Shown: piece by piece, positions 24,035 to 41,605 of the stretch
Layout of the letters: each line of letters starts with the position of its first letter
Numbering within the stretch: position 1 is the stretch's first letter
Assembly (NCBI GenBank): GCA_963769935.1
Contig: CAVYNY010000010.1
Location: forward strand, 128,001 to 192,000
Source of the DNA: an uncultured delta proteobacterium
Lineage (GTDB): Bacteria > Desulfobacterota > Desulfobacteria > Desulfobacterales > JAFDCJ01
Reading direction: 5' to 3'
DNA length: 64,000 bases
Notes under the pieces: model-generated
The model's input: only the letters and a program-made list of their open reading frames with translations
Databases searched by the model: none
Told to the model about the DNA's origin: nothing
Position numbers and translations under genes: made by a program

Positions 24035-27000
24035 ATGCGAAACCATAATTTGCCAAAACATTTATCCGGCGCGTTGACGCCCCGGGGACTTTATGATCCC
24101 ACCTTCGAGCATGATGCCTGCGGAGTGGGCATGATCTGCAACATGCACGGCGAAAAATCCCACCGGATTATCGCCGACGGCCTGCAGATTCTGGTTAACC
24201 TTACCCACCGGGGGGCCTGCGGCTGTGACGAGACCACCGGCGACGGGGCGGGCATTCTGATGCAGATGCCCCATGTCTTTTTAAAAAAGATCAGCGGGCA
24301 AGCTTCCATCAGTCTGCCGGCTGAAAAAGAATACGCCAGCGGATTGGTTTTCCTGCCGCCCGATTCCCGGCAGCGCCAAATATGTATGGATCATTTTAAA
24401 GCCGTCGTGCAGGCGGAGAAACAACAGTTTCTCGGCTGGCGCCGGGTTCCCGTAGTCAGCAAAGCCCTGGGTGAGTTGGCCCGTCAGCTGGAGCCGGCGA
24501 TCTTTCAAATCTTTATCGGCCGCGGCCCGGGGGTCGACAGCCAGGCCCATTTTGAACGCAAGCTGTTCGTCATCCGCAAGGTTATTGAAAACTTCGTCAG
24601 GCAGTCCCAACTTACCGAGGCCTCCTACTTTCATATCCCCAGCCTTTCCAGTCAAACCCTGGTGTACAAAGGAATGCTGCTGGCCGACCAGATCGAAGTC
24701 TATTATTCCGATCTGGCCGACCCGGACATGGCCAGCGCCCTGGCGATTGTCCACCAACGTTACAGCACCAACACCTTCCCCACCTGGGACCTGGCGCATC
24801 CTTTCCGGTTTCTGTGCCACAATGGCGAGATCAACACGCTGCGCGGCAATATCAACTGGATGAACGCCCGTCAGTGGCTGTTCCGGTCGGAACATTTCGG
24901 GGAAGATATGGCCAAGCTGTTTCCCATCGCGACGCCGGGGGCCAGCGACTCGGCCATATTCGACAACGTCATCGAACTGCTATATCATTCCGGTCGTTCA
25001 CTGCCCCATGCCATCATGATGCTGATTCCGGAGGCCTGGGAAAAACATGCAACCATGAGCGACGCCAAAAAGGCATTCTACGAATACCATTCGTGTCTGA
25101 TGGAACCGTGGGACGGACCGGCATCCATCGCCTTCAGCGACGGCACCTGTATCGGTGCCGTATTGGATCGCAATGGTCTGCGTCCTTCCCGCTATACCGT
25201 GACCAAAGACGGCTACGTCATTATGGCTTCGGAAACCGGCGTGCTGGAGGTCAAGCCGGAAAACGTGCACTACAAAGGCCGCCTGCAGCCGGGGCGGATG
25301 TTTCTGATCGATATAGACAAGGGCCGCATTGTTGATGACGAAGAAATCAAGGCTGAAATTGCGGCCCGCAAACCGTATCGTCAATGGCTGGCCCAAAACC
25401 GGCTGACCCTCGACCAATTGCCGCACCCCGAGCCAGGCAGCCCGGAAAATTCGCTGCCGCTGGTCGCCCGGCAGCAAGCCTTCGGCTACACTTTGGAAGA
25501 TCTGAGAATGATTCTGGCGGTTATGGCCCGGGAGGGCCAAGAACCTGTCGGATCCATGGGCGATGACATACCACCGGCCATTCTTTCCAGTCGACCGCGC
25601 CTGCTGTTTGACTATTTTAAACAACTCTTCGCCCAGGTGACGAATCCACCGCTGGATGCCATCCGCGAAGAGCTGGTGACGTCGCTGGCGACGACCATCG
25701 GGGCCGAACAGAACCTGTTTGAGGAAGATCCGCAGCACTGCCGACAGCTGAAACTGGATCAGCCGATTATCGACAATTCCCAGCTCGCGAAGATCCGCCA
25801 TATAAATAATGCTGCCATGCGTTCGGTCACGCTGTCGATGCTTTTTCCGGTGGAACAGGGCGGGCCGGGCCTGGATAAGGCCATGGCAGCACTCTGCCGC
25901 CGGGCAGCACAAGTAGTCAACGAAGGCGCAAGCATCCTGATTTTAAGCGATCGCGGCGTAGATGAACACCTGGCGCCGATACCCTCCCTGCTGGCCACCG
26001 CCGGTGTCCACCATCACCTGATCCGGCAAGGATTGCGGACCCGCTGCGGCATCGTGGCAGAGACCGGCGAAGCCCGGGAGGTTCACCACCACTGCTGCCT
26101 GATCGGATATGGTGCCGGGGCCGTCAATCCTTACCTGGCATACGATACGCTGGCAGAAATGACTGCCGGCGGGCAGCTGGAAGGCATTGCGAAGCAAGCC
26201 GCCTGCCAAAACTACAGCAAGGCGGCCGCCAAAGGTATCTTGAAAGTCATTTCAAAGATGGGCATTTCCACCCTGCAAAGCTACCGGGGTGCTCAGATTT
26301 TTGAGTGTGTAGGCCTGAACGAAACCGTCATTGAAAAATATTTTTGCGGCACGCCGTCGCGGATCGGCGGCGGCGGCCTGGATCTTATTGCCAGAGAAGT
26401 ACAAATCAGGCATCAGCATGCTTTCCCGGCGGTAAAAATAACGGCCGGCGGCCGCCTGGAACTGGGAGGCAAATACAAATGGCGCCGCACCGGTGAAGCG
26501 CATCAATACAATCCCATAAGCATTGCCAAGCTGCAGCAGGCCGTGCGCTCGAATGATGCCAGGGCCTGGGCCGAGTTTTCAGAGTTGGTCGACGCCCAAA
26601 ACCGCCGGGAAGGTCTGATTCGCGGCCTTTTTGAATTTAAAACGCCACCTGTCGCCGTCGCGCTTGATGAAGTCGAACCGGCTGAAGCGATTGTGCGCCG
26701 CCTCAAAACCGGCGCCATGTCCTACGGATCCATCAGCAAGGAAGCCCATGAAACCCTGGCAATTGCCATGAACCGCATCGGCGGCAAGAGCAACAGCGGT
26801 GAAGGCGGCGAAGACCCGGACCGGCACCAGCCCGACGCCAACGGTGATTGGCGCAACAGCGCCGTCAAACAGGTCGCCTCCGGCCGGTTCGGAGTTACCG
26901 CCGCCTATCTGGCCAATGCGACGGATCTGCAGATTAAAATGGCCCAGGGCGCCAAGCCCGGTGAAGGCGGGCAGCTGCCGGGCTTCAAGGTCTATCCCTG

Positions 27001-28585
27001 GATTGCCGCCACCCGCCATTCGACGCCGTATGTCGGGCTGATATCACCCCCGCCCCACCATGACATCTACTCCATCGAAGATCTGGCGCAATTAATTCAC
27101 GATCTGAAAAATGCCAACCCCCGAGCCCGGATCAATGTCAAACTGGTATCCGAGGCGGGTGTCGGGACGGTGGCAGCCGGAGTGGCCAAGGGCAAGGCCG
27201 ATCTGATTCTGATCAGCGGCGATTCCGGCGGCACCGGCGCATCTCCCCAGACATCCATCCGCCACGCGGGTCTGCCCTGGGAACTGGGCCTGGCGGAAAC
27301 CCAGCAGACATTGGTAATGAACGGCTTGCGCAGCCGGGTGGTGCTCGAGTGCGACGGCCAGTTAAAAACAGCCCGGGATGTGGCCATCGCCTGCCTGCTG
27401 GGGGCCGAAGAATTCGGGTTCGGCACCATCTCTCTGGTGGCTCTGGGATGCATCATGATGCGGGTCTGCCATCTGAATACCTGTCCGGTGGGCATTGCCA
27501 CGCAGGATCCGGAACTGCGCCGCAAGTTTGCCGGCAAACCTGAACATGTAATCAATTTAATGTATTTTATAGCCGAAGATCTTCGAAAGATCATGGCTCG
27601 TCTCGGGTTCCGAACCGTCCGCAAGATGGTGGGTCGGGTCGATCTGCTCGATGTCGGCCAAGCCATCAACCACTGGAAAGGGCGGAGATTTGACTTTTCA
27701 AAAATCCTGTATAAGCCTGAGGTCCCTATAGGAATCGCCGGCACCTGTTCGGTGGAGAGCCAGAACCACGGCCTTGAAAAGGCGATGGATCATCAGTTGA
27801 TCGAAAAATGCCGGCCGGCCCTGGAGCACGGAGAATCGGTTGAATTTGAAGTGCCGATCCGCAATGTGCAGCGTACGGTGGGTACGATGCTCAGCTACGA
27901 AATCTCGCGACGCTACGGCCTGAAAGGGTTACCGGCCGACACCATCGTAATCCATGCGACCGGATCGGCGGGACAGAGTTTCTGTGCTTTCGGTGCCCCC
28001 GGGCTCACGGTCCACCTGCGCGGCGATGCCAACGACTATTTCGGCAAAGGGCTGTCCGGCGCCAGATTAACCATAGCTCCCCCGGATGCCAGCACATTCA
28101 AGGCCGAAGAAAATATCATCATCGGCAACGTTGCCTTCTACGGGGCCACCAGCGGCGAGGCTTATGTCCGCGGCGTGGCCGGTGAGCGCTTCTGTGTCCG
28201 CAACAGCGGGGTTAAAGCCGTAGTTGAGGGCGTCGGAGACCATGGCTGTGAGTACATGACCGGCGGCCGGGTCGCCGTTCTGGGATCGACCGGCCGCAAT
28301 TTTGCCGCCGGCATGAGCGGCGGGGTGGCCTATGTACTGGATGAAACCGGCGATTTCGGACGCTTTCGCTGCAACTTGGAAATGGTCCAACTCGAAGTGC
28401 TCTCCGCACCGGATGATATCATCGAGCTGCAGCAGATGATCGCAAACCATTATCGCTGCACCGGCAGTGCGGTGGCACGCCGGATCCTGGACAACTGGGA
28501 AGATTTGCTTGCCAAATTCATCAAAGTGATGCCGGTGGATTACAAACGGGCGCTGGAACAAATGACAAAGGACAATAGTTATTAG
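24035..28585 (+). CDS. gltB: Glutamate synthase large subunit
   Basis: [51 protein letters not shown]-terminal domain; 1516 aa. Confidence 0.98.
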
Positions 28586-28703
28586 TTATTGGTTATTTGG
28601 TTAAAAGAATTAGGTGTCAGGTTTCGGGTGTCAGCAATATTAGTCAATACCGAGCCCTAAAACACAAATGCTTAAAATGAAGTGTCCGCATCAGGAACAA
28701 ATT

Positions 28704-30173
28704 ATGGGCAAACCGACAGGATTCAAGGAATACGACCGGGAGCTTCCCGCAAAACGGCCCGTGCAAGAGCGGATAAAGGATTTTAAGGAAATCTATCTGC
28801 CCTTTCCAACGGAAAATCTCAAAAAACAGGCGGCCCGCTGCATGGATTGCGGCGTGCCGACCTGCCATGCCGGCTGCCCCTTGGGCAATCTGATACCGGA
28901 CTGGAACGATTTCGTCTATTACGACCGCTGGCGCGATGCGCTTGGGCTGCTTTTGCTGACCAACAATTTTCCGGAAGTTACCGGCCGGCTCTGTCCGGCG
29001 CCCTGTGAGGAAGCCTGTGTTCTGGGCATCAATGAACCGCCGGTGACCATCGAGCAGATTGAAAAGGATATCATTGAACATGCCTTTGAGCAGGGCTGGA
29101 TTCAACCTGAGCCGCCGGAAAAACGAACCGGAAAAACGGTGGCGGTGATCGGGTCGGGCCCTGCGGGTCTGGCGTGCGCGCAGCAACTGAACCGCGCCGG
29201 GCACACCGTAACCGTATACGAGCGCGCCGACCGCATCGGCGGGCTTCTCAGATACGGAATTCCGGATTTCAAGCTGGAAAAACGGGTGCTGGACCGGCGC
29301 CTGGAACTTATGCGCCAGGAAGGTATTTGCTTTGAGGCCGGGGTCAATGCCGGGGTGGACCTGACACCGGAAGATCTCAATGGATTTGATGCCACCGTGA
29401 TTTGTACCGGGGCGACAATTCCCCGTGACCTGCCGATACCCGGACGCAACCTCAAAGGAATCCATTTTGCCATGGATTTTTTAGCCCGCCAGAACCGTTT
29501 AATCGCCGGGGACAGCCTCGCGCGGCTGAATGTCGATTTGATTTCCGCCGCCGACAAACATGTGGTGGTTATCGGCGGCGGCGACACCGGCAGCGACTGC
29601 ATCGGTACCTGCATTCGCCAGAAGGCCAAATCCGTGACCAATTTCGAGCTTTTTCCGAAACCCCCCGAGAATCGACCGGAAAGGCAACCCTGGCCTTTCT
29701 GGCCCGTCAGGATGCGCTCCAGTGCTTCCCATGAAGAGGGCTGCCGCCGGCAGTGGGGAATATCAACCAAAGCGTTTATCGGTAAGGCGGATAAAATCGC
29801 TAAACTGGCAACAATTGATGTTGAATTTGTAATCGACGGCCAAGGGCGCACCACGATGCGGGAAGTGGCCGGCTCAGAACGCGAATGGCAGGCCGACCTG
29901 GTGCTGCTCGCCTTAGGTTTCACAGGACCGGAGTCCAATACGATTGTCAGCGCCTGCAATCTGGACCTGGATGAACGCAGCAGCATTCAAATCGACAGCA
30001 ACTACATGACGAATAAACCGGGTATTTTTGCAGCCGGCGATGCCCAACGGGGCCAGTCTCTGATTGTGTGGGCCATTTCCGAAGGGCGTGAGGCGGCGCG
30101 CTGTGTGGATGCCTACTTAATGGGGGCTTCGGCCCTGCCCGCCAAAGGCGGTGGGGATTTACCCAGAATTTAA
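28704..30173 (+). CDS. gltD: Glutamate synthase small subunit
   Basis: Start MGKPTGF; RCMDCGVPTCHAGCP, GSGPAGL, GGGDTGSDC, RGQSLIVWAI. Confidence 0.97.
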   Translation: MGKPTGFKEYDRELPAKRPVQERIKDFKEIYLPFPTENLKKQAARCMDCGVPTCHAGCPLGNLIPDWNDFVYYDRWRDALGLLLLTNNFPEVTGRLCPAPCEEACVLGINEPPVTIEQIEKDIIEHAFEQGWIQPEPPEKRTGKTVAVIGSGPAGLACAQQLNRAGHTVTVYERADRIGGLLRYGIPDFKLEKRVLDRRLELMRQEGICFEAGVNAGVDLTPEDLNGFDATVICTGATIPRDLPIPGRNLKGIHFAMDFLARQNRLIAGDSLARLNVDLISAADKHVVVIGGGDTGSDCIGTCIRQKAKSVTNFELFPKPPENRPERQPWPFWPVRMRSSASHEEGCRRQWGISTKAFIGKADKIAKLATIDVEFVIDGQGRTTMREVAGSEREWQADLVLLALGFTGPESNTIVSACNLDLDERSSIQIDSNYMTNKPGIFAAGDAQRGQSLIVWAISEGREAARCVDAYLMGASALPAKGGGDLPRI

Positions 30174-30264
30174 AGTATGCGGGTTCACCTTTCAGGGCTC
30201 AAAAGGTAAAAAAAGCTTTCGAATGAGGCTCCGTCTCGCGGAAAAGCGAACGGCAGAATTTCAA

Positions 30265-33200
30265 ATGATGAATGGCAACCAATCCAATAATGGCGGACTG
30301 AGCTGTCCCTCATGCCGGCACAGGAACCCCGGGGAAGCCAAATTCTGTCAGCAGTGCGGACGGCAACTCCAGCGCATCTGCGCCGGCTGCCAAACTGAAA
30401 TTTCACCGGATGCCAAGTTCTGCCACCGCTGCGGCCGCCCGACCGGCAATGCCGTCGGTCGCAGCCCGGCAAACCGTGCCTATACACCCCAGTATCTGGC
30501 CGACAAGATCCTGACCTCCCGCAGCGCGTTGGAGGGTGAACGCAAACAGGTAACCGTTCTTTTTGCGGATATCAAGGGATCCATGCAGTTGGCCGAGCAG
30601 GTCGATCCCGAAGACTGGCACGGCATTCTGGATGAATTCTTCCAAATACTGGCGGCCGGCATTCATCGTTTTGAAGGCACGATCAACCAGTACACCGGTG
30701 ACGGCATCATGGCTCTTTTCGGCGCGCCCATCGCTCACGAAGATCATGCTTTGCGCGCCTGTTATGCCGCCCTTTATTTGCAAAGGATGCTGCGAAATCA
30801 TGCCGATCAGCTGCGGGTAAAGCGGGGGCTTAATTTCGGCGTGCGCATGGGGTTAAACTCCGGAGAAGTCGTGGTAGGCAGAATCGGAGACGATCTGCGT
30901 ATGGACTATACCGCCCAGGGCCAGACAGTTGGGTTGGCGGCCCGCATGGAGCAGCTCGCCGAGTCCGGTTGCGTCTATGTTACCGAGCACACTAAGACAC
31001 TCATCGAGGGCTTCTTCAAATTACGTGATCTTGGAATGTCTTCCATCAAGGGCGTGACGCAACCGGTGCGAATATATGCACTGGAAGGAATCCGAGAAGA
31101 TCGAACTCGCCTGGATATCTCCCAGGAGCGGGGTTTTTCCCGCTTTATCGGACGCGGCAATGAAATGGCCGTTCTTCAATCCGCTTATCTGCGCGCCTTA
31201 AATAACAAGGGCAACGTGGTCGGCATCGTCGGTGAGCCGGGTGTCGGTAAAAGCCGGCTGTGCTATGAATTTCTAGAACTCAACCGCAAATCGGATGTTA
31301 CCATTTGTGAAACGAGTTGCGCCTCTCACATTAAAACCGTCCCTTTACTGCCCGTCTTGCAGCTGCTGCGAAGCTTCTTTGGCATCAACTCCCAGGAGCG
31401 TGAAGAGGACGCCCGTAAAAAAATTGCCGGCACATTGATTTTGCTGGACGACGCCTTTAAAGATACGCTGTCGCTCTGGTTTGACTTCCTGGCGGTCGCC
31501 GATCGTAAACAGCCGGCAATCAGGGTAAATGGGGAAGAACGCCAACGGAAACTATTCGCCCTGATCCAGCGTCTGATCCAGACGATGTCCAAACGGGAGC
31601 CTCTGATTATTCTGGTTGAAGATCTTCACTGGATCGACCCCTCAAGCGATTCCTTCGTTGCCCGTCTGGTTGACGCCGTAACCGATACCAGAACTTTGCT
31701 GCTGCTGAACTTCCGCCCCGAGTATCGCCGGGAATGGATGAACCGATCCATTTACCGGCGTCTTCCAATTCCGGCCCTTGACACTGCGGCCTCCAAGGCG
31801 ATGTTGGAAGACCTCCTCGGCAGCGATCCGTCGCTGAAAAATCTGACACCCAGACTCGCTTCACGTGCGCTCGGCAACCCCTACTTCATCGAGGAGCTGG
31901 TTCGGTCGCTGGTGGAAGCCGGCAATCTTGCCGGCCGGCGCAGTGCTTATCGTCTGGTGAAACCCTTAAAATCTCAAACGCTGCCCCGTACGGTTCAGGC
32001 CGTTCTGACGGCGCGCATCGACCGCTTAGGAGAAGCGGCCAAACAGGTTCTTCAAACGGCCTCGGTCATCGGCCAGGAGTTTGAAGCCGTGATCCTGCGC
32101 CAGGTGGTGGATTTATCCGGAACAGAGCTGGACGCTTGCCAACATGCGCTGCAGGAGGTTGAATTCTTTTATCAGAAGGTTTTTTATCCGGAGCCGATTT
32201 ATGCTTTCAAACACCCCATTGTGAGGGAAGTCGCCTATCATTCGCTGCTCACCAAAGCACGCGCCAGGCTCCACCGCCGCATAGTTCGGGCCATTGAAAT
32301 CACTTATCCGGACCGCCAGGATGAACTTGCCGGGCTGGTGGCATACCACTGGGAAAAGGCGGGTAAACCACTCAAGGCCGCTCGCCGGCATCGGCGCGCT
32401 GCGCATGCATCCGGTTTTGCCGAGGTTCAGCGGACATTCTTCCATTGGAGCCAAGCCCTAAGGCTGACTCAACTGGCGCCGGCCGTTGAGGAAGCGCAGC
32501 GATTGCAGCTGGAGGCCTGCTGCGGAGCCCTTGACATCGGCGGCCGGGTCGATATTTCTCCCAAGCAAGTCCGGGAAATCTTTGAGGAAGGCCGTAAGCT
32601 GGCCGAAAGATTTGGTGATCCCCGCTCTCTTTTGCGCCTGCATGAAGACCTGGCCGCGCGACTCGGGTGGTCGGGCGACCTCGCAGGTCAGAGACGATAT
32701 CTCAAGGAGGCCACGATTATCGCTGAATCGGTTCCTGACCCTGAAATTAAACTGGGTCTTCTGCAACGCCGTTATGTTGCGGAGTTCCACCAGGGCGATT
32801 TAAGGTCGGCCTTGAGCATGACGGAGGAAGGCATCGCCGGCTGTGAAGCCGCAGCGTCCGCCCTGCCGAATCCGGTTTTCAGTCGTCTTTTGCGCTCTTT
32901 TCTGCTCGCACGAGCAAATGTCCTATCAATGACGGGCGAACTTGAGCAGGCCGGAGCACTCATAGATCAAGCGGCGCATCTCATGCCGCCGGCCGACAAA
33001 TCTAAACCGGACTCACGCACAACCCATACCGAAGCGCTGATTCGCGCCAACCTCTCGATCTATATCGGTGATATCGATGCCTGCTTGCGTGATGGGCGCG
33101 TTTTCGTAGAACTTGCAGAACGCTCAGGCTCTACCTGGGCCATTGCCGTTTCGGCTTCAACCCTCGGAAGAGCGCACCTGGTGGGGCAGCATTGGCCGCA

Positions 33201-33669
33201 AGCCCGGGAGTCACTCGAATACGCGCTGGCGCAGGCCCGGCAGCACAAGCTCGGACTGGAGGCGGAAGCCTCCTATCTGGCCTTTTTAGCCGAGGCTCTG
33301 GCGGGCTGCGGTGAGCTGGAGCAGGCGCTTGAAACCGCCGAGGAGGCGATCGCCGTGGCTCGCCGCAAGGGAACCCGATTCTGGGAGCTCCAGGCCCAAA
33401 CAGCTTTGGCAACCGTTCTTTTGCGCCGGTATCGAGCGGAGGATCGGAATCGCATTGCAGAAACCCTGGATCTGGCCGACGAACTGATTGAAAAAACCGG
33501 AGGGAAGGTAATGAGGCCGTTGATAGCCCTGCGGCGTGCTGAATTATCTGAACTGACGGGTGATAAAGCCGGCTATCTGCAATTGATTCAAAAGGCTTTC
33601 GACCTGTGCACTTCCATGGCCGCCCACGGATACGCCCAACGGCTGGCGGCCAAACTCAGAGCAGTTTGA
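30265..33669 (+). CDS. Double zinc ribbon + class III nucleotide cyclase + STAND/AAA ATPase + TPR protein (start uncertain)
   Basis: Four CxxC pairs; VLFADIKGS, GDGIMALFG; GEPGVGKS, VEDLHWID, GNPYF; helical C-terminus. Confidence 0.9.
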   Translation: MMNGNQSNNGGLSCPSCRHRNPGEAKFCQQCGRQLQRICAGCQTEISPDAKFCHRCGRPTGNAVGRSPANRAYTPQYLADKILTSRSALEGERKQVTVLFADIKGSMQLAEQVDPEDWHGILDEFFQILAAGIHRFEGTINQYTGDGIMALFGAPIAHEDHALRACYAALYLQRMLRNHADQLRVKRGLNFGVRMGLNSGEVVVGRIGDDLRMDYTAQGQTVGLAARMEQLAESGCVYVTEHTKTLIEGFFKLRDLGMSSIKGVTQPVRIYALEGIREDRTRLDISQERGFSRFIGRGNEMAVLQSAYLRALNNKGNVVGIVGEPGVGKSRLCYEFLELNRKSDVTICETSCASHIKTVPLLPVLQLLRSFFGINSQEREEDARKKIAGTLILLDDAFKDTLSLWFDFLAVADRKQPAIRVNGEERQRKLFALIQRLIQTMSKREPLIILVEDLHWIDPSSDSFVARLVDAVTDTRTLLLLNFRPEYRREWMNRSIYRRLPIPALDTAASKAMLEDLLGSDPSLKNLTPRLASRALGNPYFIEELVRSLVEAGNLAGRRSAYRLVKPLKSQTLPRTVQAVLTARIDRLGEAAKQVLQTASVIGQEFEAVILRQVVDLSGTELDACQHALQEVEFFYQKVFYPEPIYAFKHPIVREVAYHSLLTKARARLHRRIVRAIEITYPDRQDELAGLVAYHWEKAGKPLKAARRHRRAAHASGFAEVQRTFFHWSQALRLTQLAPAVEEAQRLQLEACCGALDIGGRVDISPKQVREIFEEGRKLAERFGDPRSLLRLHEDLAARLGWSGDLAGQRRYLKEATIIAESVPDPEIKLGLLQRRYVAEFHQGDLRSALSMTEEGIAGCEAAASALPNPVFSRLLRSFLLARANVLSMTGELEQAGALIDQAAHLMPPADKSKPDSRTTHTEALIRANLSIYIGDIDACLRDGRVFVELAERSGSTWAIAVSASTLGRAHLVGQHWPQARESLEYALAQARQHKLGLEAEASYLAFLAEALAGCGELEQALETAEEAIAVARRKGTRFWELQAQTALATVLLRRYRAEDRNRIAETLDLADELIEKTGGKVMRPLIALRRAELSELTGDKAGYLQLIQKAFDLCTSMAAHGYAQRLAAKLRAV

Positions 33670-34598: not shown

Positions 34599-35276
34599 TT
34601 AGTATTGTCCGACGCCGGCGCCGTTTTCACCCTGGCTGTACGCATTGGCCTCATGGACCATGGATTGGACCTGGGCCTGAGACTGGGTTTTCGCCTGGGT
34701 GTGCAGCTGGGTCTGGATTTGAGATTGGGTATGGCTGTTGACCTGAGTTTGGTTCTGGGTCTGAGACTGAGTCATAGACTGGGACTGCATCTGGGACTGG
34801 GTTTGAATGTGAGCCTGGGCTTGCTCCTGAGTATGTGACTGTGTTCCGGTGGTCGAACCGACGCCGTGGCCGTTTACACCCTGGCTGCCGTTGCCTCCGC
34901 CACTGCCGGAACCCGCGCCTCCGCCACTACCGGTACCGCCTGGGCCGGGGCCGCTGCCGGGTCCACCACCAACTCCTCCACCCGCGCCGCTGCCGCCACC
35001 GTCGCCGCCTGCTCCATTGCCTGAACCCCCGCCACCCGGGGCCCCAGCGCCCGCACCGCCGCCGGCACCGCCTCCACCGCCGGGACCCCCTCCAGGCCCC
35101 TTGGCGAGGAACATGCCGCCCTCAAACTGGGCCGAAGCAATGTCGGCAGCCACCGACGGTTGAGTGCCGCTGCCGTTCGTCCGAAACAGGTTCGACGGAA
35201 CTGCACTCCAGGCCGGAAACGTAATGAACAACAGCCCTGAAACACACACGAATTTTTTTAACATTTGTCTCTTCAT
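34599..35276 (-). CDS. Secreted low-complexity protein (Gly-rich block followed by a Gln-alternating block)
   Basis: AGGAGG SD, signal peptide ending AWS-A, own promoter motif and terminator. Confidence 0.8.
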   Translation of the reverse strand: MKRQMLKKFVCVSGLLFITFPAWSAVPSNLFRTNGSGTQPSVAADIASAQFEGGMFLAKGPGGGPGGGGGAGGGAGAGAPGGGGSGNGAGGDGGGSGAGGGVGGGPGSGPGPGGTGSGGGAGSGSGGGNGSQGVNGHGVGSTTGTQSHTQEQAQAHIQTQSQMQSQSMTQSQTQNQTQVNSHTQSQIQTQLHTQAKTQSQAQVQSMVHEANAYSQGENGAGVGQY

Positions 35277-35395
35277 ACATCCTCCTGTATCTGATTTTAA
35301 TTGGTTTCCATCCGATGCTCAACGAATGGCCGAGATTCTGCCTGCAATAACCTGCACCTCTGCACCCGGGCGCGACTCCCAGCACGGTTTGACAA

Positions 35396-35428
35396 TTAAA
35401 CGGATAAGCGGCCAGAAGGTTACAAATT
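35396..35428 (-). promoter_or_regulatory. ECF-type promoter, copy 1
   Basis: AATTTGTAACCTT-N13-CGTTTAA, same boxes and spacing as the copy at 38078. Confidence 0.75.
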
Positions 35429-35576
35429 TTTTAACATTATTTTTAGAAATGCTAAAAATATGGGGAAAAAGAGAAGGAGTTGTCTGATTAAAAATTCAAT
35501 TGAGTCAACAATCAAGAATTATTGCATTATTATATACATAAATTGGGCCACCCAGCTTAGTGGCCAGAATTTATTC

Positions 35577-36551
35577 TTATTTGTTACCACCGCCGCCGCC
35601 GCCGGGACCGCCACCACCACCGGGACCACCGGAACCGCTGCCACCGGAACCACCGCCGCTGCCACCTCCAGAGCCACCGCTTCCTCCACTGCCTCCACCG
35701 GCACCCATCCCGCCCGGACCCGAGGCGCCGGCATTCCCGCCGGAGCTCCCGGAGGAACCTGCCTGTAACCCTCTGCCTTCATGGATGGCAGCGGTGAAGC
35801 CGCGGGCCAGGTTCTGAGGCTCGGACTGCCGCGCCTGGGTAACAAACGAGTTGTGCAGGGCCTGCATGTCTTCATGGTTGAAGCCTTTGGCCAGGGCTGT
35901 GGTGACCATGCCTGTGACGGCCTGGGATGAGACGCCCAGGCGCGAGGCGTCCCTCGCGGTCTGATAACACGCGAGCGCCAGACTGTAGGCCTGGTCGGAG
36001 TTCATGGAGCCTGCACGCTGCTGAACCATTTCCGTGATCTTGTCGGCGTCATCTCTGGACAGACCGGCTGCCAGGCCGGCGGCCAGCGTGCGACCAAGGT
36101 TTTGCGCACGGCTTTTCTGACTGGTAAGCTGCGCCGCACGCTGAAAGGCGAACGAATCTCGAGACTCGACCGTTTGCATGGCGCTGACGATCAGGGGCGT
36201 AGGCACGTTTTTGGCCATGCCTTCGAAGGCCTTGTTAATCAGCGGCTCTACGGGTATACCGCTGTTATGGGCCTCGATCATCAGTGTGTGGGCCATTTGG
36301 ATCTGGCGTTCGTCAAAGTTGTGCTGCAGCATGGCATGGGTGAGCTTGACCACGCTCGCCGCTTCCAAACCGCTTTTAACCGCCTGCCGGGTGCTGGCCT
36401 TGACCGCCGCGGGCGTATTTGCCGGCAAACTGTCGTCTATCGCATCTGCCAGGGCAGCACCCGCAAACAGCAGCACCAGAATCATCGAACCCAGCGCAAC
36501 CAACCCAACGGTCCGGTATCTAATTTTTAATTTTGGTATCAAATCTTTCAT
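35577..36551 (-). CDS. Exported helical protein with Gly/Ser-rich C-terminal tail
   Basis: Signal peptide ending ALA-D; Ala-rich helical body (GIPVEPLINKAFEGMAK); ~60-aa Gly tail; likely start MKDLIPK at 36551. Confidence 0.8.
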   Translation of the reverse strand: MKDLIPKLKIRYRTVGLVALGSMILVLLFAGAALADAIDDSLPANTPAAVKASTRQAVKSGLEAASVVKLTHAMLQHNFDERQIQMAHTLMIEAHNSGIPVEPLINKAFEGMAKNVPTPLIVSAMQTVESRDSFAFQRAAQLTSQKSRAQNLGRTLAAGLAAGLSRDDADKITEMVQQRAGSMNSDQAYSLALACYQTARDASRLGVSSQAVTGMVTTALAKGFNHEDMQALHNSFVTQARQSEPQNLARGFTAAIHEGRGLQAGSSGSSGGNAGASGPGGMGAGGGSGGSGGSGGGSGGGSGGSGSGGPGGGGGPGGGGGGNK

Positions 36552-36588
36552 TGCTGAAAGTTCCTTTAAACCTAAAAATTTTAAAATA

Positions 36589-36695
36589 GGACACGGATTT
36601 ATACGGAGCTTCATAAATTTTTAACAAATTTTTGGTTTTTCTAAAATGTTGTCGAAGACAATAAATATCCGTGTCATCTGCTTTCATCCGTGTCC
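36589..36695. repeat. Inverted-repeat-bounded intergenic element (GGACACGGAT / ATCCGTGTCC)
   Basis: 10-bp perfect inverted repeat; related left ends near 49991 and 60286. Confidence 0.55.
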
Positions 36696-36716
36696 CCCTT
36701 AAAATTCAGACATTTA

Positions 36717-37043
36717 CTATTCCGGAACATACACACAGTTGCGAGAGCCAAAATCATCCTTTTCGGAAAACTTACAATCGGGCACATACACTGCCCCGTC
36801 CACGATGTAAAAATACCGGAATTCAGAACCGGCCGTCACGCTGACCACCCAGCGTGAGTCGTCTGCTTTGCCGGCCAGGTGCGGGCTGTAAGCATCCAGC
36901 GAGGAAGCGAACGCCACCCCCTGTGCCCCGGGCGCCCTGAGATAGAAGGTCACCCGGTCTGACTGCCGTTCGTAATAATGGGTTGCGGCGCACCCTTCAA
37001 GACCAAAGGCGGCAACCGTCAAAAGCAGAAACAGAATTTTCAC
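36717..37043 (-). CDS. Lipoprotein with AMPK-beta/CBM48-like (glycogen-binding type) domain
   Basis: LEGC lipobox; VTFYLRAPGA...RYFYIVDG...EKDDFGSRN; GTG start overlapping the upstream TGA. Confidence 0.8.
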   Translation of the reverse strand: MKILFLLLTVAAFGLEGCAATHYYERQSDRVTFYLRAPGAQGVAFASSLDAYSPHLAGKADDSRWVVSVTAGSEFRYFYIVDGAVYVPDCKFSEKDDFGSRNCVYVPE

Positions 37044-37597
37044 GTTCTCATGTTCACGGCCAGAATTGAGTTCTCGCCGCCGAAATCATCCTTTTCGCGA
37101 ATAGGTATGGTCGGGTCGGGGATCCGTTTATGTCCATCGATGATGTAGCAAAGCCGGTGCTCGCCGGGCGGTACGTCGAGAACCGTCTCCCAGTAACCGC
37201 TGCCGGTTCTTTGCATGGGTACAGCTTTCCAGCCAAGAAAGCTGCCGGTGATTTCCACCTCCTTCACATGCGGTTGATACAGGACAAAGCGGTACTTCGT
37301 CGGCACGGGCAGTTCCCGCTGTGGCGTTGCGAAAAACATAACCAGCAGGGCGGCCGCCAACCCGGCGGCAAACATGCCGGCCGGGCGCCACAGCGCGATC
37401 GAAAACCGGCGTTTTTCACGAAACACGACAGCCGGCACACGGTCGACCACTTCGCCGCGCACCCGCTTTTCCTGGTGCAGCAGATCCACGGCCTCGTCTT
37501 TAAAATGCGCATGGACATGTACGGTTTCGACAAACTCGATCTTCTCGTCCAGGTCCAGCTCGTCGTCGATATAGCTGCTTATCAGATAATCCCTCAT
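37040..37597 (-). CDS. Putative anti-sigma factor: N-terminal ASD-like domain, one TM helix, C-terminal CBM48-like domain
   Basis: LISSYIDDELD start; TM AAGLAAALLVMFF; VEITGSFLGW...W...PPGEH...IIDG...PDP...DDFGGENS; ATGA overlap with the sigma gene. Confidence 0.85.
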   Translation of the reverse strand: MRDYLISSYIDDELDLDEKIEFVETVHVHAHFKDEAVDLLHQEKRVRGEVVDRVPAVVFREKRRFSIALWRPAGMFAAGLAAALLVMFFATPQRELPVPTKYRFVLYQPHVKEVEITGSFLGWKAVPMQRTGSGYWETVLDVPPGEHRLCYIIDGHKRIPDPTIPIREKDDFGGENSILAVNMRT

Positions 37598-38061
37598 TTT
37601 TCACCTGTATTCATCATTTTTCTCAGTTTCACCCGGGCGCGGTGAACCCGGACCTTGACATTGCTCTCGCTCGTATTGGTTATCCGGGCGATTTCCCGGT
37701 AGGAAAGATCCCGACTGACCACCAGCGAAAGAACCTCCCGCTCTTCCGGCTCCAGTTCCTGCAGGGCCGCCAGCACCCGCCGGTAGTCTTCGCGCACCAT
37801 CAGGTGCGCTTCCGGGTTGGGCTGGGAATGTTCCGGCTCGTCATAAAGTTGGCTATCACGCCCCTGTTTGCGATGCCCGTCGACCACGGCATTACGGGCG
37901 ATGGCATACAACAAGGCCGGGTTTTGACCCTTTTCACCGTATTTTTCCAGATACCGCGTAAAGCTCTCCTGCAGGATGTCGCTCGAAAGGTGGTAATCCC
38001 CGGTGCTCCTCATCAGGTATGCAAAAAGCCGGTCCCGGTGCTTTCTATAAAATTCCCTCAA
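37594..38061 (-). CDS. ECF RNA polymerase sigma factor (start uncertain, TTG)
   Basis: Region 2 (DILQESF, LYAIARNAVVD) and region 4 (LSYREIA, VKVRVHRAR) only; 155 aa. Confidence 0.92.
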   Translation of the reverse strand: MREFYRKHRDRLFAYLMRSTGDYHLSSDILQESFTRYLEKYGEKGQNPALLYAIARNAVVDGHRKQGRDSQLYDEPEHSQPNPEAHLMVREDYRRVLAALQELEPEEREVLSLVVSRDLSYREIARITNTSESNVKVRVHRARVKLRKMMNTGEK

Positions 38062-38077
38062 ATTCGCACTCTTCTAT

Positions 38078-38110
38078 TTAAACGAACTACGGGTTAAAAG
38101 GTTACAAATT
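38078..38110 (-). promoter_or_regulatory. ECF-type promoter, copy 2 (probably autoregulatory)
   Basis: AATTTGTAACCTT-N13-CGTTTAA immediately upstream of the sigma gene. Confidence 0.75.
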
Positions 38111-38116
38111 CGATCT

Positions 38117-38302
38117 TTATTTATACACCCGCTGATAAATTTCACACTCTCTAAAATTCCGCAGGCAGTATTTGACGGCATAGGGTATTTTCATGCTGGT
38201 CATGTCGATGCAGTAACAGTTCGGTAGGGGATCATCGAGGATCGGGCACATCTTACCTGCATTGTCAAAACTGTCGAAGGTCTGTCGTGTTAAAACGGCC
38301 AT
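38117..38302 (-). CDS. Small Cys-rich protein (61 aa)
   Basis: GGAGG SD; CP-x8-CYC-x14-C-x6-C pattern. Confidence 0.6.
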   Translation of the reverse strand: MAVLTRQTFDSFDNAGKMCPILDDPLPNCYCIDMTSMKIPYAVKYCLRNFRECEIYQRVYK

Positions 38303-38444
38303 GACAAAATGCCCCTCCGGTGCAGAAACCAAAAAGTTACGCCTCTGTATCTAAGCTGCTGCATTCGTAAGGCGGGGAAAGCAGAGCCCGAAATTGCACT
38401 CAAAAGCTATAACGTGGAAAGATGCCTGAGGTTACAATTGAGGT

Positions 38445-39224
38445 TCAGCCGGAAATCACATAAACATAAACCTCCCGCGGACCGTGGGCGCCGTGCACCA
38501 TGGTGGCTTCGACATCAGCGGTTTTGCTGGGCCCGGAGATAAAGGTCATGCAGTTGGTCAGGCCCTCTTTTTGAAAAGCCGGGTCCCAATTTAACAACGC
38601 ATATAGCTCTTTGAGGTCGGCGATGATCTGATCAGGTGTGATGACGGCGACGTGAATGGAGGGAACGAGGGACACCGACCGGGCCTGCCCGGGCCGGGTT
38701 CGCATAACCAGAGTGGCGGTCTCGGCCATGCAGAAATCAGCAGAAGTAATTCCGATGAAAGAATCGATGACGTTTTTTCGAATTCGCTCTCTTGCCTGGG
38801 TCGCAGAAGCTGCGTCTGCCACGGCGTCTTCAAATGCGGCGATGTGCAGCGGCGCATTCTGACCCGCCAGCGCATCCGCCAGATTCAGGCTCTCAAGCAA
38901 GGGATGCTGCCACATGACAACCTGTTTTTGATTACCGAACTCCGGGTCCTTTTCTCGAACCAGATCGGCAATGGCGGCGGTGACGGCTGCCCGGTCTTTT
39001 AAAACCGTGACCTTGAGGTTGATGGGCGCAGCCATTTCCATCAGCCGGTCGATCAACTGCTGCCTGTCCGCCGCCGAGCGGTGCTTGATTCGATCGAGGA
39101 TGACAGCAGTTTCATCGGTAAACTGACTGGTGCAAAGATCTTTGGCAGCCCGCCGCTCATCGGGAACATGCCCAAGCGCGGACCGAATCCGGCCGATAAA
39201 TGCTTGCTGTCCTGAATTGTCCAT
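38445..39224 (-). CDS. lutC: LUD-domain lactate utilization protein C
   Basis: AETATL, SLVPSIH, FISGPSKTADVE, GAHGP. Confidence 0.9.
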   Translation of the reverse strand: MDNSGQQAFIGRIRSALGHVPDERRAAKDLCTSQFTDETAVILDRIKHRSAADRQQLIDRLMEMAAPINLKVTVLKDRAAVTAAIADLVREKDPEFGNQKQVVMWQHPLLESLNLADALAGQNAPLHIAAFEDAVADAASATQARERIRKNVIDSFIGITSADFCMAETATLVMRTRPGQARSVSLVPSIHVAVITPDQIIADLKELYALLNWDPAFQKEGLTNCMTFISGPSKTADVEATMVHGAHGPREVYVYVISG

Positions 39225-39292
39225 TTAATTACTCCGCCCCGTAAAATAAACGAATAACTCTCAATTGAGCCTTATTTCCAGCTCAATTGGGC

Positions 39293-40720
39293 TCAAAGGC
39301 CTTTCTTCCACCGCTTGATAAAGCTCTCCCCTGCTACCGGTTGGATATCCCGGTCCTTCGTCCAGCCGCTCATGGGCGGCGGCAGCCGCCGGATCATGCC
39401 GTTTTGGGCCGGTAGGATTTTTTGCCCGAGGAACGTCAGCCACATGAAAAAATCATAGACACCGCGGTTGCGAATTATCCACGACCACATCTGAAAGATC
39501 ATTTTTTCGGCATTGCTGGCCCGGGTTACATTCCAGGCGGGATCGCCATCGGCCAGTTTGGCCCGCAGCGCCAGCAGCATGCGTGGAATGTCGATATTGA
39601 TCGGACACGCATCCTGGCAGGCTCCACACAGGGTTTCTCCCTGGCACAGGTCTTTAGCCTCGTTGATGCCGGCCAGCAGCGGCATTACCACGGCTCCCAC
39701 CGGACCTGAGTAGGGATGTCCGTAGGAATGCCCCCCGATTTTCCCGTAGACCGGACAGATATTCAAACAGGCGGCACACCGGATGCAGCACAGCATCTCC
39801 CGAAATTCTTTATCCGCCAGGATTCGGCTGCGGCCGTTGTCCAGAATCACCAGGTGAAACTCATCCGGTCCATCTACCTGGTTCGGCTGCCGGGGGCCGC
39901 CGACATAGCTTACGTAAGTGCCTATATTCTGAGCTGCGGCTGCCCGGCAAAGCAGTCTTAAAAGAATGTCGTGATCCTCCAGCCTGGCAGCGACGCGTTC
40001 CATACCCATTATGGCCACATGAACTTTCGGCATGGTGGAGGACATGCGGATGTTGCCCTCATTGGATACGGTGGCGATGTGGCCGGTTTCCGCACAAGCG
40101 ATGTTGCAGCCGGAAAACCCGATGTCAGCCTTCAGAAATTTTTTCCGCAAAGATTTTCTGGCAGCGCGGGTTAAACTCGGAGGATCATCGGTATAAGCGA
40201 TTCCGATTTTGTCGGCAAACAGCCTGCCGATATCGACCCGGGTCTTATGGATGGCCGGTGCAATAATGTGGGATGGCCGTTCACCGGCCAGTTGAATAAT
40301 GTATTCTCCTAAATCGGTTTCGGCCACGTCGATGCCGTCTTCCTTCAATGCAGAATTGAGCCCGATTTCTTCACTCACCATGGATTTGCCTTTGACTGCC
40401 AGCGTTGCCTTGTGCTTGCGGGCAGTTGCCAGACAATAATCCAAAGCGGCCTGGCAGTCCTGGGCAAAAAATACATGGCCGCCATTTTGGCGAACGTTCG
40501 CAGCCAGCGTCTCCAGCAAAACATCCAGGTTTGCGATGGCCGCTTCGCGTATCTCATGGGCTTTAAGACGCAGATCCGGCCCTTCCGGCAATTTTCGGTA
40601 AGCAATTGCAGTGCCCCGGCCAAAACGGTTTTGAAGATCGGCCAGCGCGCTCTGCAGAACCTTGTTATTCAAAGCTCTTTTGGCTTCCGCAATATAATCT
40701 CCGATAAAAATTTCACTCAT
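39293..40720 (-). CDS. lutB: Fe-S lactate utilization protein B
   Basis: KGKSMVSEE, ETDLGEYIIQL, PSHIIAPAIH, CIRCAACLNICP, LCGACQDACP. Confidence 0.95.
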   Translation of the reverse strand: MSEIFIGDYIAEAKRALNNKVLQSALADLQNRFGRGTAIAYRKLPEGPDLRLKAHEIREAAIANLDVLLETLAANVRQNGGHVFFAQDCQAALDYCLATARKHKATLAVKGKSMVSEEIGLNSALKEDGIDVAETDLGEYIIQLAGERPSHIIAPAIHKTRVDIGRLFADKIGIAYTDDPPSLTRAARKSLRKKFLKADIGFSGCNIACAETGHIATVSNEGNIRMSSTMPKVHVAIMGMERVAARLEDHDILLRLLCRAAAAQNIGTYVSYVGGPRQPNQVDGPDEFHLVILDNGRSRILADKEFREMLCCIRCAACLNICPVYGKIGGHSYGHPYSGPVGAVVMPLLAGINEAKDLCQGETLCGACQDACPINIDIPRMLLALRAKLADGDPAWNVTRASNAEKMIFQMWSWIIRNRGVYDFFMWLTFLGQKILPAQNGMIRRLPPPMSGWTKDRDIQPVAGESFIKRWKKGL

Positions 40721-40861
40721 AGGTTCGTATTCCGAGTTGCGAGTTGCGTGTTATTGTTGCACGCTAATTGTGTCGGGTTTAGGGTTCAGGGTTAAAGGAA
40801 TTCTATCGATTATAAACAATATCATAGACGGAGCGAAGCGACTTCCACAAATATTCATTTT

Positions 40862-41605
40862 TCAATTTTCAATTGTAGCCCCGGCTAGGATTTGTGCAAT
40901 ATGCAGGGTCTTGATATCCGATCCCTTGCGGCTGAGCATCCCCTGAATGTTCATCAGGCAGCCCATATCGCAGCCGACCACGGTATCGGCACCGGAGGCA
41001 ATTATCTTGTTGACCTTATCTTCAGCCATGGCCGCCGATATATCCGCATATTTCACCGAAAACGATCCGCCGAATCCGCAGCATCTATCCGAATCGTAAA
41101 GTTCGACAAATTCAGCGCCGGAAACCTTGCGCAGGAGTCTGCGGGGTTGCTCCCGGATACGCAGGCTGCGCAACAGATGACAGGAATCATGATAGGTAAT
41201 TTTTCCGCCATATTGGGCGCCAAGGTCATCCACCCCCAGGATATCCACCAGATACTCCGTAAGTTCATAGGTCTTGTCAGCCACGTGTCGGGCACGCTGT
41301 TGCCAGGGGGCATCGTCCTCGAACAATTCCGCATAGTGGTGCCTTACCATCGTCACGCATGACCCGGAAGGGCAAACGATCGTGTCCGCAGTCTCAAAAA
41401 TTTCAATGAATCGCTTTGCGGCAATCCTTGCCTCCCGGCGATAGCCGGAATTAAAAGCCGGCTGTCCGCAACAGGTCTGCTGGGTCGGGCACGTCACGCT
41501 TATCCCCAGTTTGCGAAAAATATGTACCATGGCTTCACCGACTTCCGGGTAAATTCCATCCACCAGGCATTGAATGAAAAGCGTCACGGTTTTGTTTTCG
41601 TCCAT
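40862..41605 (-). CDS. lutA: CCG-domain lactate utilization protein A
   Basis: QTCCGQPAFNSG, PSGSC, YHDSCH, CCGFGGSF, GCLMNI. Confidence 0.95.
   Translation of the reverse strand: MDENKTVTLFIQCLVDGIYPEVGEAMVHIFRKLGISVTCPTQQTCCGQPAFNSGYRREARIAAKRFIEIFETADTIVCPSGSCVTMVRHHYAELFEDDAPWQQRARHVADKTYELTEYLVDILGVDDLGAQYGGKITYHDSCHLLRSLRIREQPRRLLRKVSGAEFVELYDSDRCCGFGGSFSVKYADISAAMAEDKVNKIIASGADTVVGCDMGCLMNIQGMLSRKGSDIKTLHIAQILAGATIEN

Follow-up and report, generated by a model that had tools for sequence, protein, structure and literature searches.

A conserved ECF sigma factor module with CBM48-type anti-sigma and lipoprotein domains, and its predicted regulon, in Desulfobacterota

A stretch of 64,000 nucleotides from an uncultured delta proteobacterium (contig CAVYNY010000010.1, positions 128,001 to 192,000), referred to below as the window, was analysed for a gene module built around an extracytoplasmic function (ECF) sigma factor. 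The first-pass annotation of this DNA had described overlapping genes for a sigma factor, a transmembrane (TM) anti-sigma factor and a lipoprotein, followed by genes for an exported helical protein (hel) and a secreted Gly/Gln protein. All five genes were found, and all module genes of the window lie on the minus strand. Two of the proteins carry a domain of the type present in family 48 carbohydrate-binding modules (CBM48) and in the beta subunit of AMP-activated protein kinase (AMPK). The first four genes are as follows.

37594..38061, minus strand: ECF sigma factor with Sigma70_r2 and r4_2 domains (TIGR02937), aligned with 10 relatives
37040..37597, minus strand: single-pass anti-sigma factor with an N-terminal domain without zinc Cys, a TM segment at about residues 73-91 and an AMPK-beta/CBM48-type domain at residues 98-185
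36717..37043, minus strand: lipoprotein with a CBM48-type domain and invariant C90 and C103 around a DDFG hairpin
35577..36551, minus strand: hel, an exported 12-helix alpha-solenoid with a Gly/Ser tail; the open reading frame (ORF) spans 36614-35577, and the likely start is 36551

Composition and conservation of the module

Homologues were collected by a genome scan that confirmed 120 loci; the best 80, almost all of them from records of Desulfobacterota type, were compared with the window. The order sigma, anti-sigma, lipoprotein, hel was found in 67 of these 80 loci. Seven of the 13 deviating loci stop at contig edges, four show the altered order lipoprotein, hel, sigma, anti-sigma, one is without the lipoprotein and one is without hel in the locus. 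In an even set of 301 Desulfobacterota genomes (the phylum sample), an anti-sigma profile matched 37 genomes and an independent hel profile matched 27, with one match per genome. Comparison of coordinates placed hel beside the CBM anti-sigma in 26 of the 27 hel-bearing genomes, and in the remaining one hel lies at a contig end. It may be concluded that the module is real and conserved.

In a sigma tree, the module-bearing genomes split into three clades (supports 91/77, 94/96 and 89/90, none of them starred, with one long-branched sigma of the source genome itself placed inside clade B). Clade A is the window type and comprises nine genomes of the phylum sample. Clade B, among whose homologues are names from Desulfovibrionales and Syntrophobacterales, carried GTGAC-N16/17-GTA sites 5' of sigma in six of nine loci examined and, in three, an upstream small CBM protein. 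The zinc motif HxxxCxxC was intact in 9/9 cases in clade C, and exported multihaem cytochrome genes follow the clade C module in loci L089, L100, L101 and L104. From this three-clade comparison, sigma, the CBM anti-sigma and hel form the constant core, and the lipoprotein with the Cys pair belongs to clade A. Contigs from an RNA run of a related strain cover the module genes and are uninformative on expression level, strand or operon structure.

The sigma factor, a protein of 155 amino acids (aa), matched PF04542, PF08281 and TIGR02937 over the cut-off; it is short and contains only the sigma2 and sigma4 domains, as expected of the ECF type. Its gene overlaps the anti-sigma gene by 4 nt, which is also the overlap between the anti-sigma and lipoprotein genes. 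As assembled, sigma starts at TTG 38061, and the GTG conserved among its relatives (38069) is shifted out of frame by a single base: between 38061 and 38069 the sequence is one base short after this GTG, which is the in-frame start in all 10 aligned relatives. Because an RNA-run contig of the related strain has an extra base there, the missing base is possibly an assembly indel.

The C-terminal domain of the anti-sigma matched PF16561 (AMPK1_CBM; E 1.4e-10, 41.6 bits) and PF02922 (CBM_48; E 6.6e-7), both over the cut-off, and its closest PDB entry was the AMPK beta1 CBM (E 2e-8). It has the beta-sandwich, the GxFxxW motif and the C-terminal hairpin of the CBM48/AMPK1_CBM fold. Residues were counted in 81 anti-sigmas and 76 lipoproteins of clade A. 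W123 of the GSFxxW motif was retained in 81/81 anti-sigmas, and HxxxCxxC was found in 0/81, so that the protein is not of the zinc-binding anti-sigma type. Since the hydropathy of the TM segment was at least 1.6 in 80/81 sequences and the count of K and R was higher before this segment than after it in 75/81, the CBM-type domain is predicted to be periplasmic. We infer, by analogy, that the N-terminal domain holds the sigma factor.

The lipoprotein carries its lipobox Cys18 in 75/76 homologues. Taken alone, it gave no CBM match in Pfam; a profile-profile comparison matched it to the anti-sigma domain with probability 98.9, and the best fold match of its model (pLDDT 92) was the AMPK-beta CBM (TM-score 0.78, E 4.6e-5). 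Judging from these profile and model comparisons, the lipoprotein is a paralogue of the anti-sigma CBM domain. Both proteins terminate in EKDDFGxxN. The lipoprotein has the CBM48 fold, but GxFxxW is changed to SSLDxY/F, and the Trp equivalent to AMPK W100 is replaced by Tyr or Phe in 75/76 sequences. The earlier statement that this Trp was lost was therefore correct for the Trp itself, but the aromatic position is kept. C90 and C103 are invariant (76/76). Of the remaining features first read from the letters, the CBM48-like domain, with a predicted extracytoplasmic location, and the common C-terminal motif were confirmed, and the retained GSFxxW without the zinc motif and the two Cys flanking the DDFG hairpin held in the larger set. 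Covariation between the anti-sigma and the lipoprotein gave C150-S63 as the top pair (z 7.5 versus shuffled maxima of 3.5-4.8, at an effective depth of 45-52); random re-pairing leaves kinship uncontrolled, and this result was not used as evidence. For hel and its partners, covariation in two pairings was about at shuffle level.

The model of hel is a 12-helix solenoid (pLDDT 96.7) whose best structural matches were designed repeat proteins (top VIA-align Z 9.5). Searches with hel gave no Foldseek match at E <= 0.001, no Pfam family common to its members and no plasmid match. The hel family had 1375 representatives at E <= 0.001. Atlas matches of hel under 0.9 fell in Myxococcota, Spirochaetota and Gemmatimonadota clusters and are leads only.

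Promoter motif and predicted regulon

Of the 77 loci with enough flank, 66 carry the motif TGTAACYTT-N13-CGTTWWA between positions -43 and -65 relative to the sigma start; the regular expression used gave 68 matches, two of them off-position. A position weight matrix (PWM) was built from 64 sigma-promoter sites. At a score of at least 20, it found five sites in the 8-Mb source genome versus 0.5 in shuffles. These sites precede sigma, the Gly/Gln gene, a Cys-rich ORF, an exported DUF2202 protein (contig C11) and a response regulator (contig C22). The promoters of the window and the genes behind them are given below.

38405..38437, minus strand: predicted ECF promoter 1, GTAAC-N16-CGTT, before the Cys-rich ORF (PWM score 21.2)
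38117..38302, minus strand: Cys-rich small protein of 61 aa without a signal peptide, an accessory regulon member
38077..38107, minus strand: predicted autoregulatory ECF promoter, TGTAACYTT-N13-CGTTWWA, before sigma (PWM score 31.5)
35395..35425, minus strand: predicted ECF promoter 3, before the Gly/Gln gene (PWM score 30.2)
34599..35276, minus strand: Gly/Gln protein, exported and of low complexity, a predicted direct target

The strict promoter pattern occurred in 6/9 clade-A genomes versus 6/292 other genomes of the phylum sample, and it was found 103 times in the genomes of 50 of the 80 loci, against 18 times for the reversed pattern. In related loci, some of which overlap, 41 promoter sites precede hel, so that hel is both a partner and a predicted target of the system in many genomes. 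In the window, no promoter site was found before hel. The lipoprotein-hel intergenic region (36620-36716) contains an imperfect repeat resembling repetitive extragenic palindromic elements, at the place where many relatives carry a second promoter site.

Residues 58-140 of the Gly/Gln protein are 61% Gly, and residues 141-205 are 35% Gln. In 27/80 loci, a promoter site precedes a small Gly-rich ORF, with an LA[RK]GG-type motif in 20 of the 27. To these were added 40 further sites (32 fetched regions and six loci, with 28 proteins checked in Pfam). The first genes behind them encode 11 exported low-complexity proteins, six DUF2202 proteins and one DUF2202 remnant, four members of an exported 140-aa family, three c-type cytochromes, two membrane proteins and, once each, a Cys-rich protein, hel, a carbonic anhydrase, a PAS-like protein and a 707-aa ORF; eight sites had no clear gene. 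No glycosidase or sugar transporter was the first gene at any of the 40 sites, and no envelope biogenesis, protease, chaperone or exopolysaccharide (EPS) gene was seen behind them.

DUF2202, which is related to MJ0754 and is termed ferritin-like in the available text of a ferrosome preprint (10.1101/2020.01.10.902569), stood behind a site in 7/61 genomes scanned, with one further remnant. As a control, 19 DUF2202 genes of the phylum sample were examined: the motif preceded two of them, both in clade-A genomes (scores 28.4 and 27.4), and the other 17 scored at most -3.3. The c-type cytochromes behind promoter sites are di-haem peroxidase-like in loci L073 and L158, and others occur in L151 and L164. 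The 61-aa Cys-rich ORF can be assigned to the system because of its own promoter site; a site also precedes its homologues in L030, L018 and L145. This protein, for which no Pfam family was found, has five Cys invariant in seven aligned homologues and is likely metal-binding.

Thus, the predicted regulon comprises exported Gly-rich proteins, ferritin-like DUF2202 proteins, c-type cytochromes and the small Cys-rich protein, as far as promoter sites indicate. A structural rather than catabolic output had been proposed for the system; the predicted output is indeed non-catabolic, but it also includes DUF2202 and, in relatives, c-type cytochromes. Gene order, topology, promoter and regulon together support the proposal that an ECF sigma factor and CBM48-type domains form a circuit across the envelope.

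Several observations lie at the edge of the system. The Cys-rich family shows the pattern CPxLxDPxxxCYC...YC...C, with tandem duplicates in two loci (L001:925-1266; L048:8139-8486) and Atlas clusters in Nitrospirota and Thermodesulfobacteriota. An exported family of 130-143 aa without a Pfam family stands directly behind the promoter motif in L136, L153, L163 and L114. At the C22 site (L112), a response regulator lies 300 bp on, followed by a rubrerythrin with a signal-peptide-like N-terminus (L112:1603-2280), a weak candidate. A terminator-like hairpin (34570-34547) follows the Gly/Gln gene, although such hairpins were not above chance overall. A lipoprotein of 256 aa that belongs to no known family (34448-33678) was not accepted as part of the module; it occurs in 3/80 loci, has no promoter site and lies beyond this hairpin. 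The neighbours are ordinary: an adenylate/guanylate cyclase-AAA-TPR protein (30151-33669), glutamate synthase genes (24035-30173) and lactate utilisation (LUD) genes (38445-41605).

Candidate signals

We consider it an evenly balanced possibility that the module is an envelope redox or metal-stress switch in which the CBM48-type domains act as a protein-contact surface or as a sensor of something other than glucan. The autoregulated ECF sigma factor would be held at the inner membrane by the N-terminal domain of the single-pass anti-sigma, and the predicted periplasmic CBM48-type domain, the paralogous lipoprotein and hel would together sense envelope redox or metal stress. By analogy with RseB, the lipoprotein, hel or both may shield the anti-sigma. 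The input would be oxidation of, or metal binding by, the C90/C103 pair of the lipoprotein; the signal would expose the anti-sigma to regulated proteolysis and free the sigma factor, as in the RseA and RsiW pattern. The freed sigma factor would then amplify its own operon and induce a limited number of exported proteins, with Gly-rich proteins, DUF2202 and cytochromes as the protective output.

A redox or metal signal is favoured because C90 and C103 are invariant, because searches of the source genome (96.7% complete) found no DsbB and no VKOR, and because most of the targets that fall in a named family are ferritin-like or haem proteins. Two exported DsbA-like proteins of the source genome (G000 C11:614131 and C17:38781) have an active-site motif whose first position is an in-frame TGA and, on this sequence feature, are likely selenoproteins.

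A number of findings weigh against such a switch. The exported DsbA-like proteins could keep the Cys pair oxidised at all times. Targets of redox type are unevenly distributed: only two of the nine module genomes of the phylum sample have DUF2202, cytochromes stand behind four sites in total, and the commonest target is a Gly-rich protein without known function. Single remote targets, such as the rubrerythrin 800 bp behind the C22 site and the carbonic anhydrase, are weak because chance may account for about 18 of the 103 sites. The small CBM proteins of clade B are without a Cys pair around the hairpin, and 3/3 retain a Trp of the type of AMPK W133. A sugar-stacking surface may also persist in the anti-sigma, since the equivalents of AMPK W100, L146 (as Phe) and N150 are invariant there, and the source genome encodes one exported alpha-amylase-like GH13 protein.

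A narrower version of the redox switch, which we regard as unlikely as it stands, is that exposure of the strict anaerobe to O2 oxidises or metal-loads the Cys pair of the lipoprotein, alters its contact with the anti-sigma domain and the hel scaffold, and so releases sigma. The output would be a coat of disordered Gly-rich proteins with DUF2202 and peroxidase-type cytochromes. If this were true, the module would mediate an envelope response of sediment sulfate reducers to oxygen exposure, DUF2202 would gain a regulatory context, and a CBM48 fold would have been turned into a periplasmic redox switch.

Alternatively, the remodelled CBM48 domains may bind an envelope polymer other than alpha-glucan (a peptidoglycan fragment, a sugar of lipopolysaccharide or EPS, or a periplasmic glucan) or the exported Gly-rich proteins themselves, in which case the module would be a general switch for envelope integrity or the biofilm matrix, with the Cys pair as no more than a structural disulfide. 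This reading is possible, though on the unlikely side. It is consistent with the aromatic face kept in the anti-sigma (W123 and F172) and in the lipoprotein (Y/F52, F78, Y/F86 and F98), with the dominance of exported low-complexity proteins, many with the LA[RK]GG-type motif, among the targets, and with the occurrence of CBM48 on feruloyl esterases (6rzn and 8bbp among the structure matches). CBM48 ligands extend beyond starch, given the CBM48s of feruloyl esterases. However, the absence of envelope biogenesis, protease, chaperone and EPS genes behind the 40 further sites argues against it, and it leaves the specific recruitment of DUF2202 unexplained.

The first-pass annotation had suggested that the circuit senses an alpha-glucan or, as another candidate, uses pairing between its CBM domains. 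According to the available text of McBride et al. 2009 (PMC2642990), W100, K126, W133, L146 and T148 of AMPK beta1 contact the carbohydrate, and mutation of each markedly lowered glycogen binding. In the alignment, these positions correspond to W123, C150, K157/R158, F172 and G174 of the anti-sigma. W123 was retained in 81/81 clade-A sequences, but the K126 equivalent was Lys in 0/81 clade-A and 0/106 parsed clade-B anti-sigmas, and a Trp near W133 was found in 1/81 and 11/106, respectively, so that the AMPK-type glycogen site is not preserved. The absence of the K126 and W133 equivalents had been overlooked in the earlier reading. Stand-alone CBM48-type proteins without an export signal (L109 and L110) retain R/K and W. 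Because two carbohydrate-contact residues are lost and the regulon holds no glucan enzymes or transporters, alpha-glucan sensing is disfavoured. Binding of maltodextrin, or of glycogen from lysed cells, by the periplasmic domains would fit the Pfam matches over cut-off, the invariant W123, F172 and N176 and the exported GH13 protein, and the same proposal has been made for a related group, as described below; however, the exported amylase is not preceded by a promoter site (best score -4.0), neither glycosidases nor sugar transporters stand behind the 40 further sites, and this explanation appears improbable.

Decay of the module in the source genome is highly improbable: the base missing after the conserved GTG and the lost internal promoter before hel (best score -7.6, versus the 41 sites in related loci) would fit it, but the five ORFs show no other damage, a TTG in the same frame follows two codons later, four strict promoter sites are retained across the genome, and the extra base in the related strain fits an assembly indel.

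Comparison with known systems

The SigI-RsgI systems of Clostridium thermocellum also pair a sigma factor, of the SigI type, with an anti-sigma that bears an extracytoplasmic carbohydrate-binding module, and they induce glycosidases; unlike these, the module of the window had no glycosidase among the targets found. The E. coli sigmaE-RseA-RseB and B. subtilis SigW-RsiW systems combine an autoregulated ECF sigma factor, a single-pass anti-sigma, an extracytoplasmic accessory partner and an envelope output. All four traits are predicted for the module of the window, and its signalling scheme is itself familiar. It differs from these systems in that the periplasmic folds are unrelated, the window clade is without a zinc motif, the regulon is small (about 3-5 sites per genome) and proteolytic release is proposed from architecture.

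The anti-sigma domain resembles the AMPK-beta CBM (PDB 1z0n and 1z0m) in fold and sequence, with the equivalents of W100, L146 (as Phe) and N150 kept; unlike that domain, it has lost the equivalents of K126 and W133 and is predicted to be exported, and the lipoprotein has Tyr or Phe for W100 together with the Cys pair. ECF16 (SigF-NrsF/OsrA), as summarised in the supplement of PMC7826278, has a GTAACC-CGTA promoter and an essential periplasmic Cys pair and responds to metal and oxidative stress. The promoter type and the periplasmic Cys pair are thus alike, a functional parallel that is an analogy only: the ECF16 anti-sigma has six TM helices (DUF1109) and carries the Cys itself, whereas the Cys pair of the window is on a separate lipoprotein.

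The closest counterpart is ECF278s1, for which the entry in Supplementary Text S2 of Casas-Pastor et al. 2021 (PMC7826278) gives a single-pass anti-sigma at +1 with a periplasmic AMPK glycogen-recognition domain; this entry proposes glycogen sensing by computation only and lists no studied member. A single-TM anti-sigma at +1, an AMPK-type domain predicted to be periplasmic, deltaproteobacterial hosts and a conserved upstream promoter are common to both. The module of the window had been put forward as an undescribed system; its architecture is on record in that entry, but the window belongs to a sister lineage with another promoter. The window clade has GTAAC/CGTTA and ECF278s1 has GTGAC/GTATA, and because the latter fits clade B and not clade A, the window sigma was not filed as an ECF278s1 member. 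The sigma tree separates the window clade from the one with GTGAC (supports 91/77 and 94/96, neither of them starred). The ECF278s1 entry mentions no lipoprotein, helical partner or regulon, and no experimental paper on this module was found in the literature searched. Set apart by its promoter and by the sigma tree, the window sigma is, on these sequence grounds, a sister lineage that works like ECF278s1. The comparison revises the glycogen-sensing idea printed for this architecture. For an ECF lineage of sulfate reducers that is itself unstudied, the analysis provides a sharply defined promoter motif and a small regulon that lends itself to testing. It also connects CBM48 anti-sigmas with a family of helical-repeat proteins that has no name, and DUF2202 with an envelope response. 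The module has a cultured carrier, Desulfosarcina variabilis (L071), and its compact promoter eases a reporter test.

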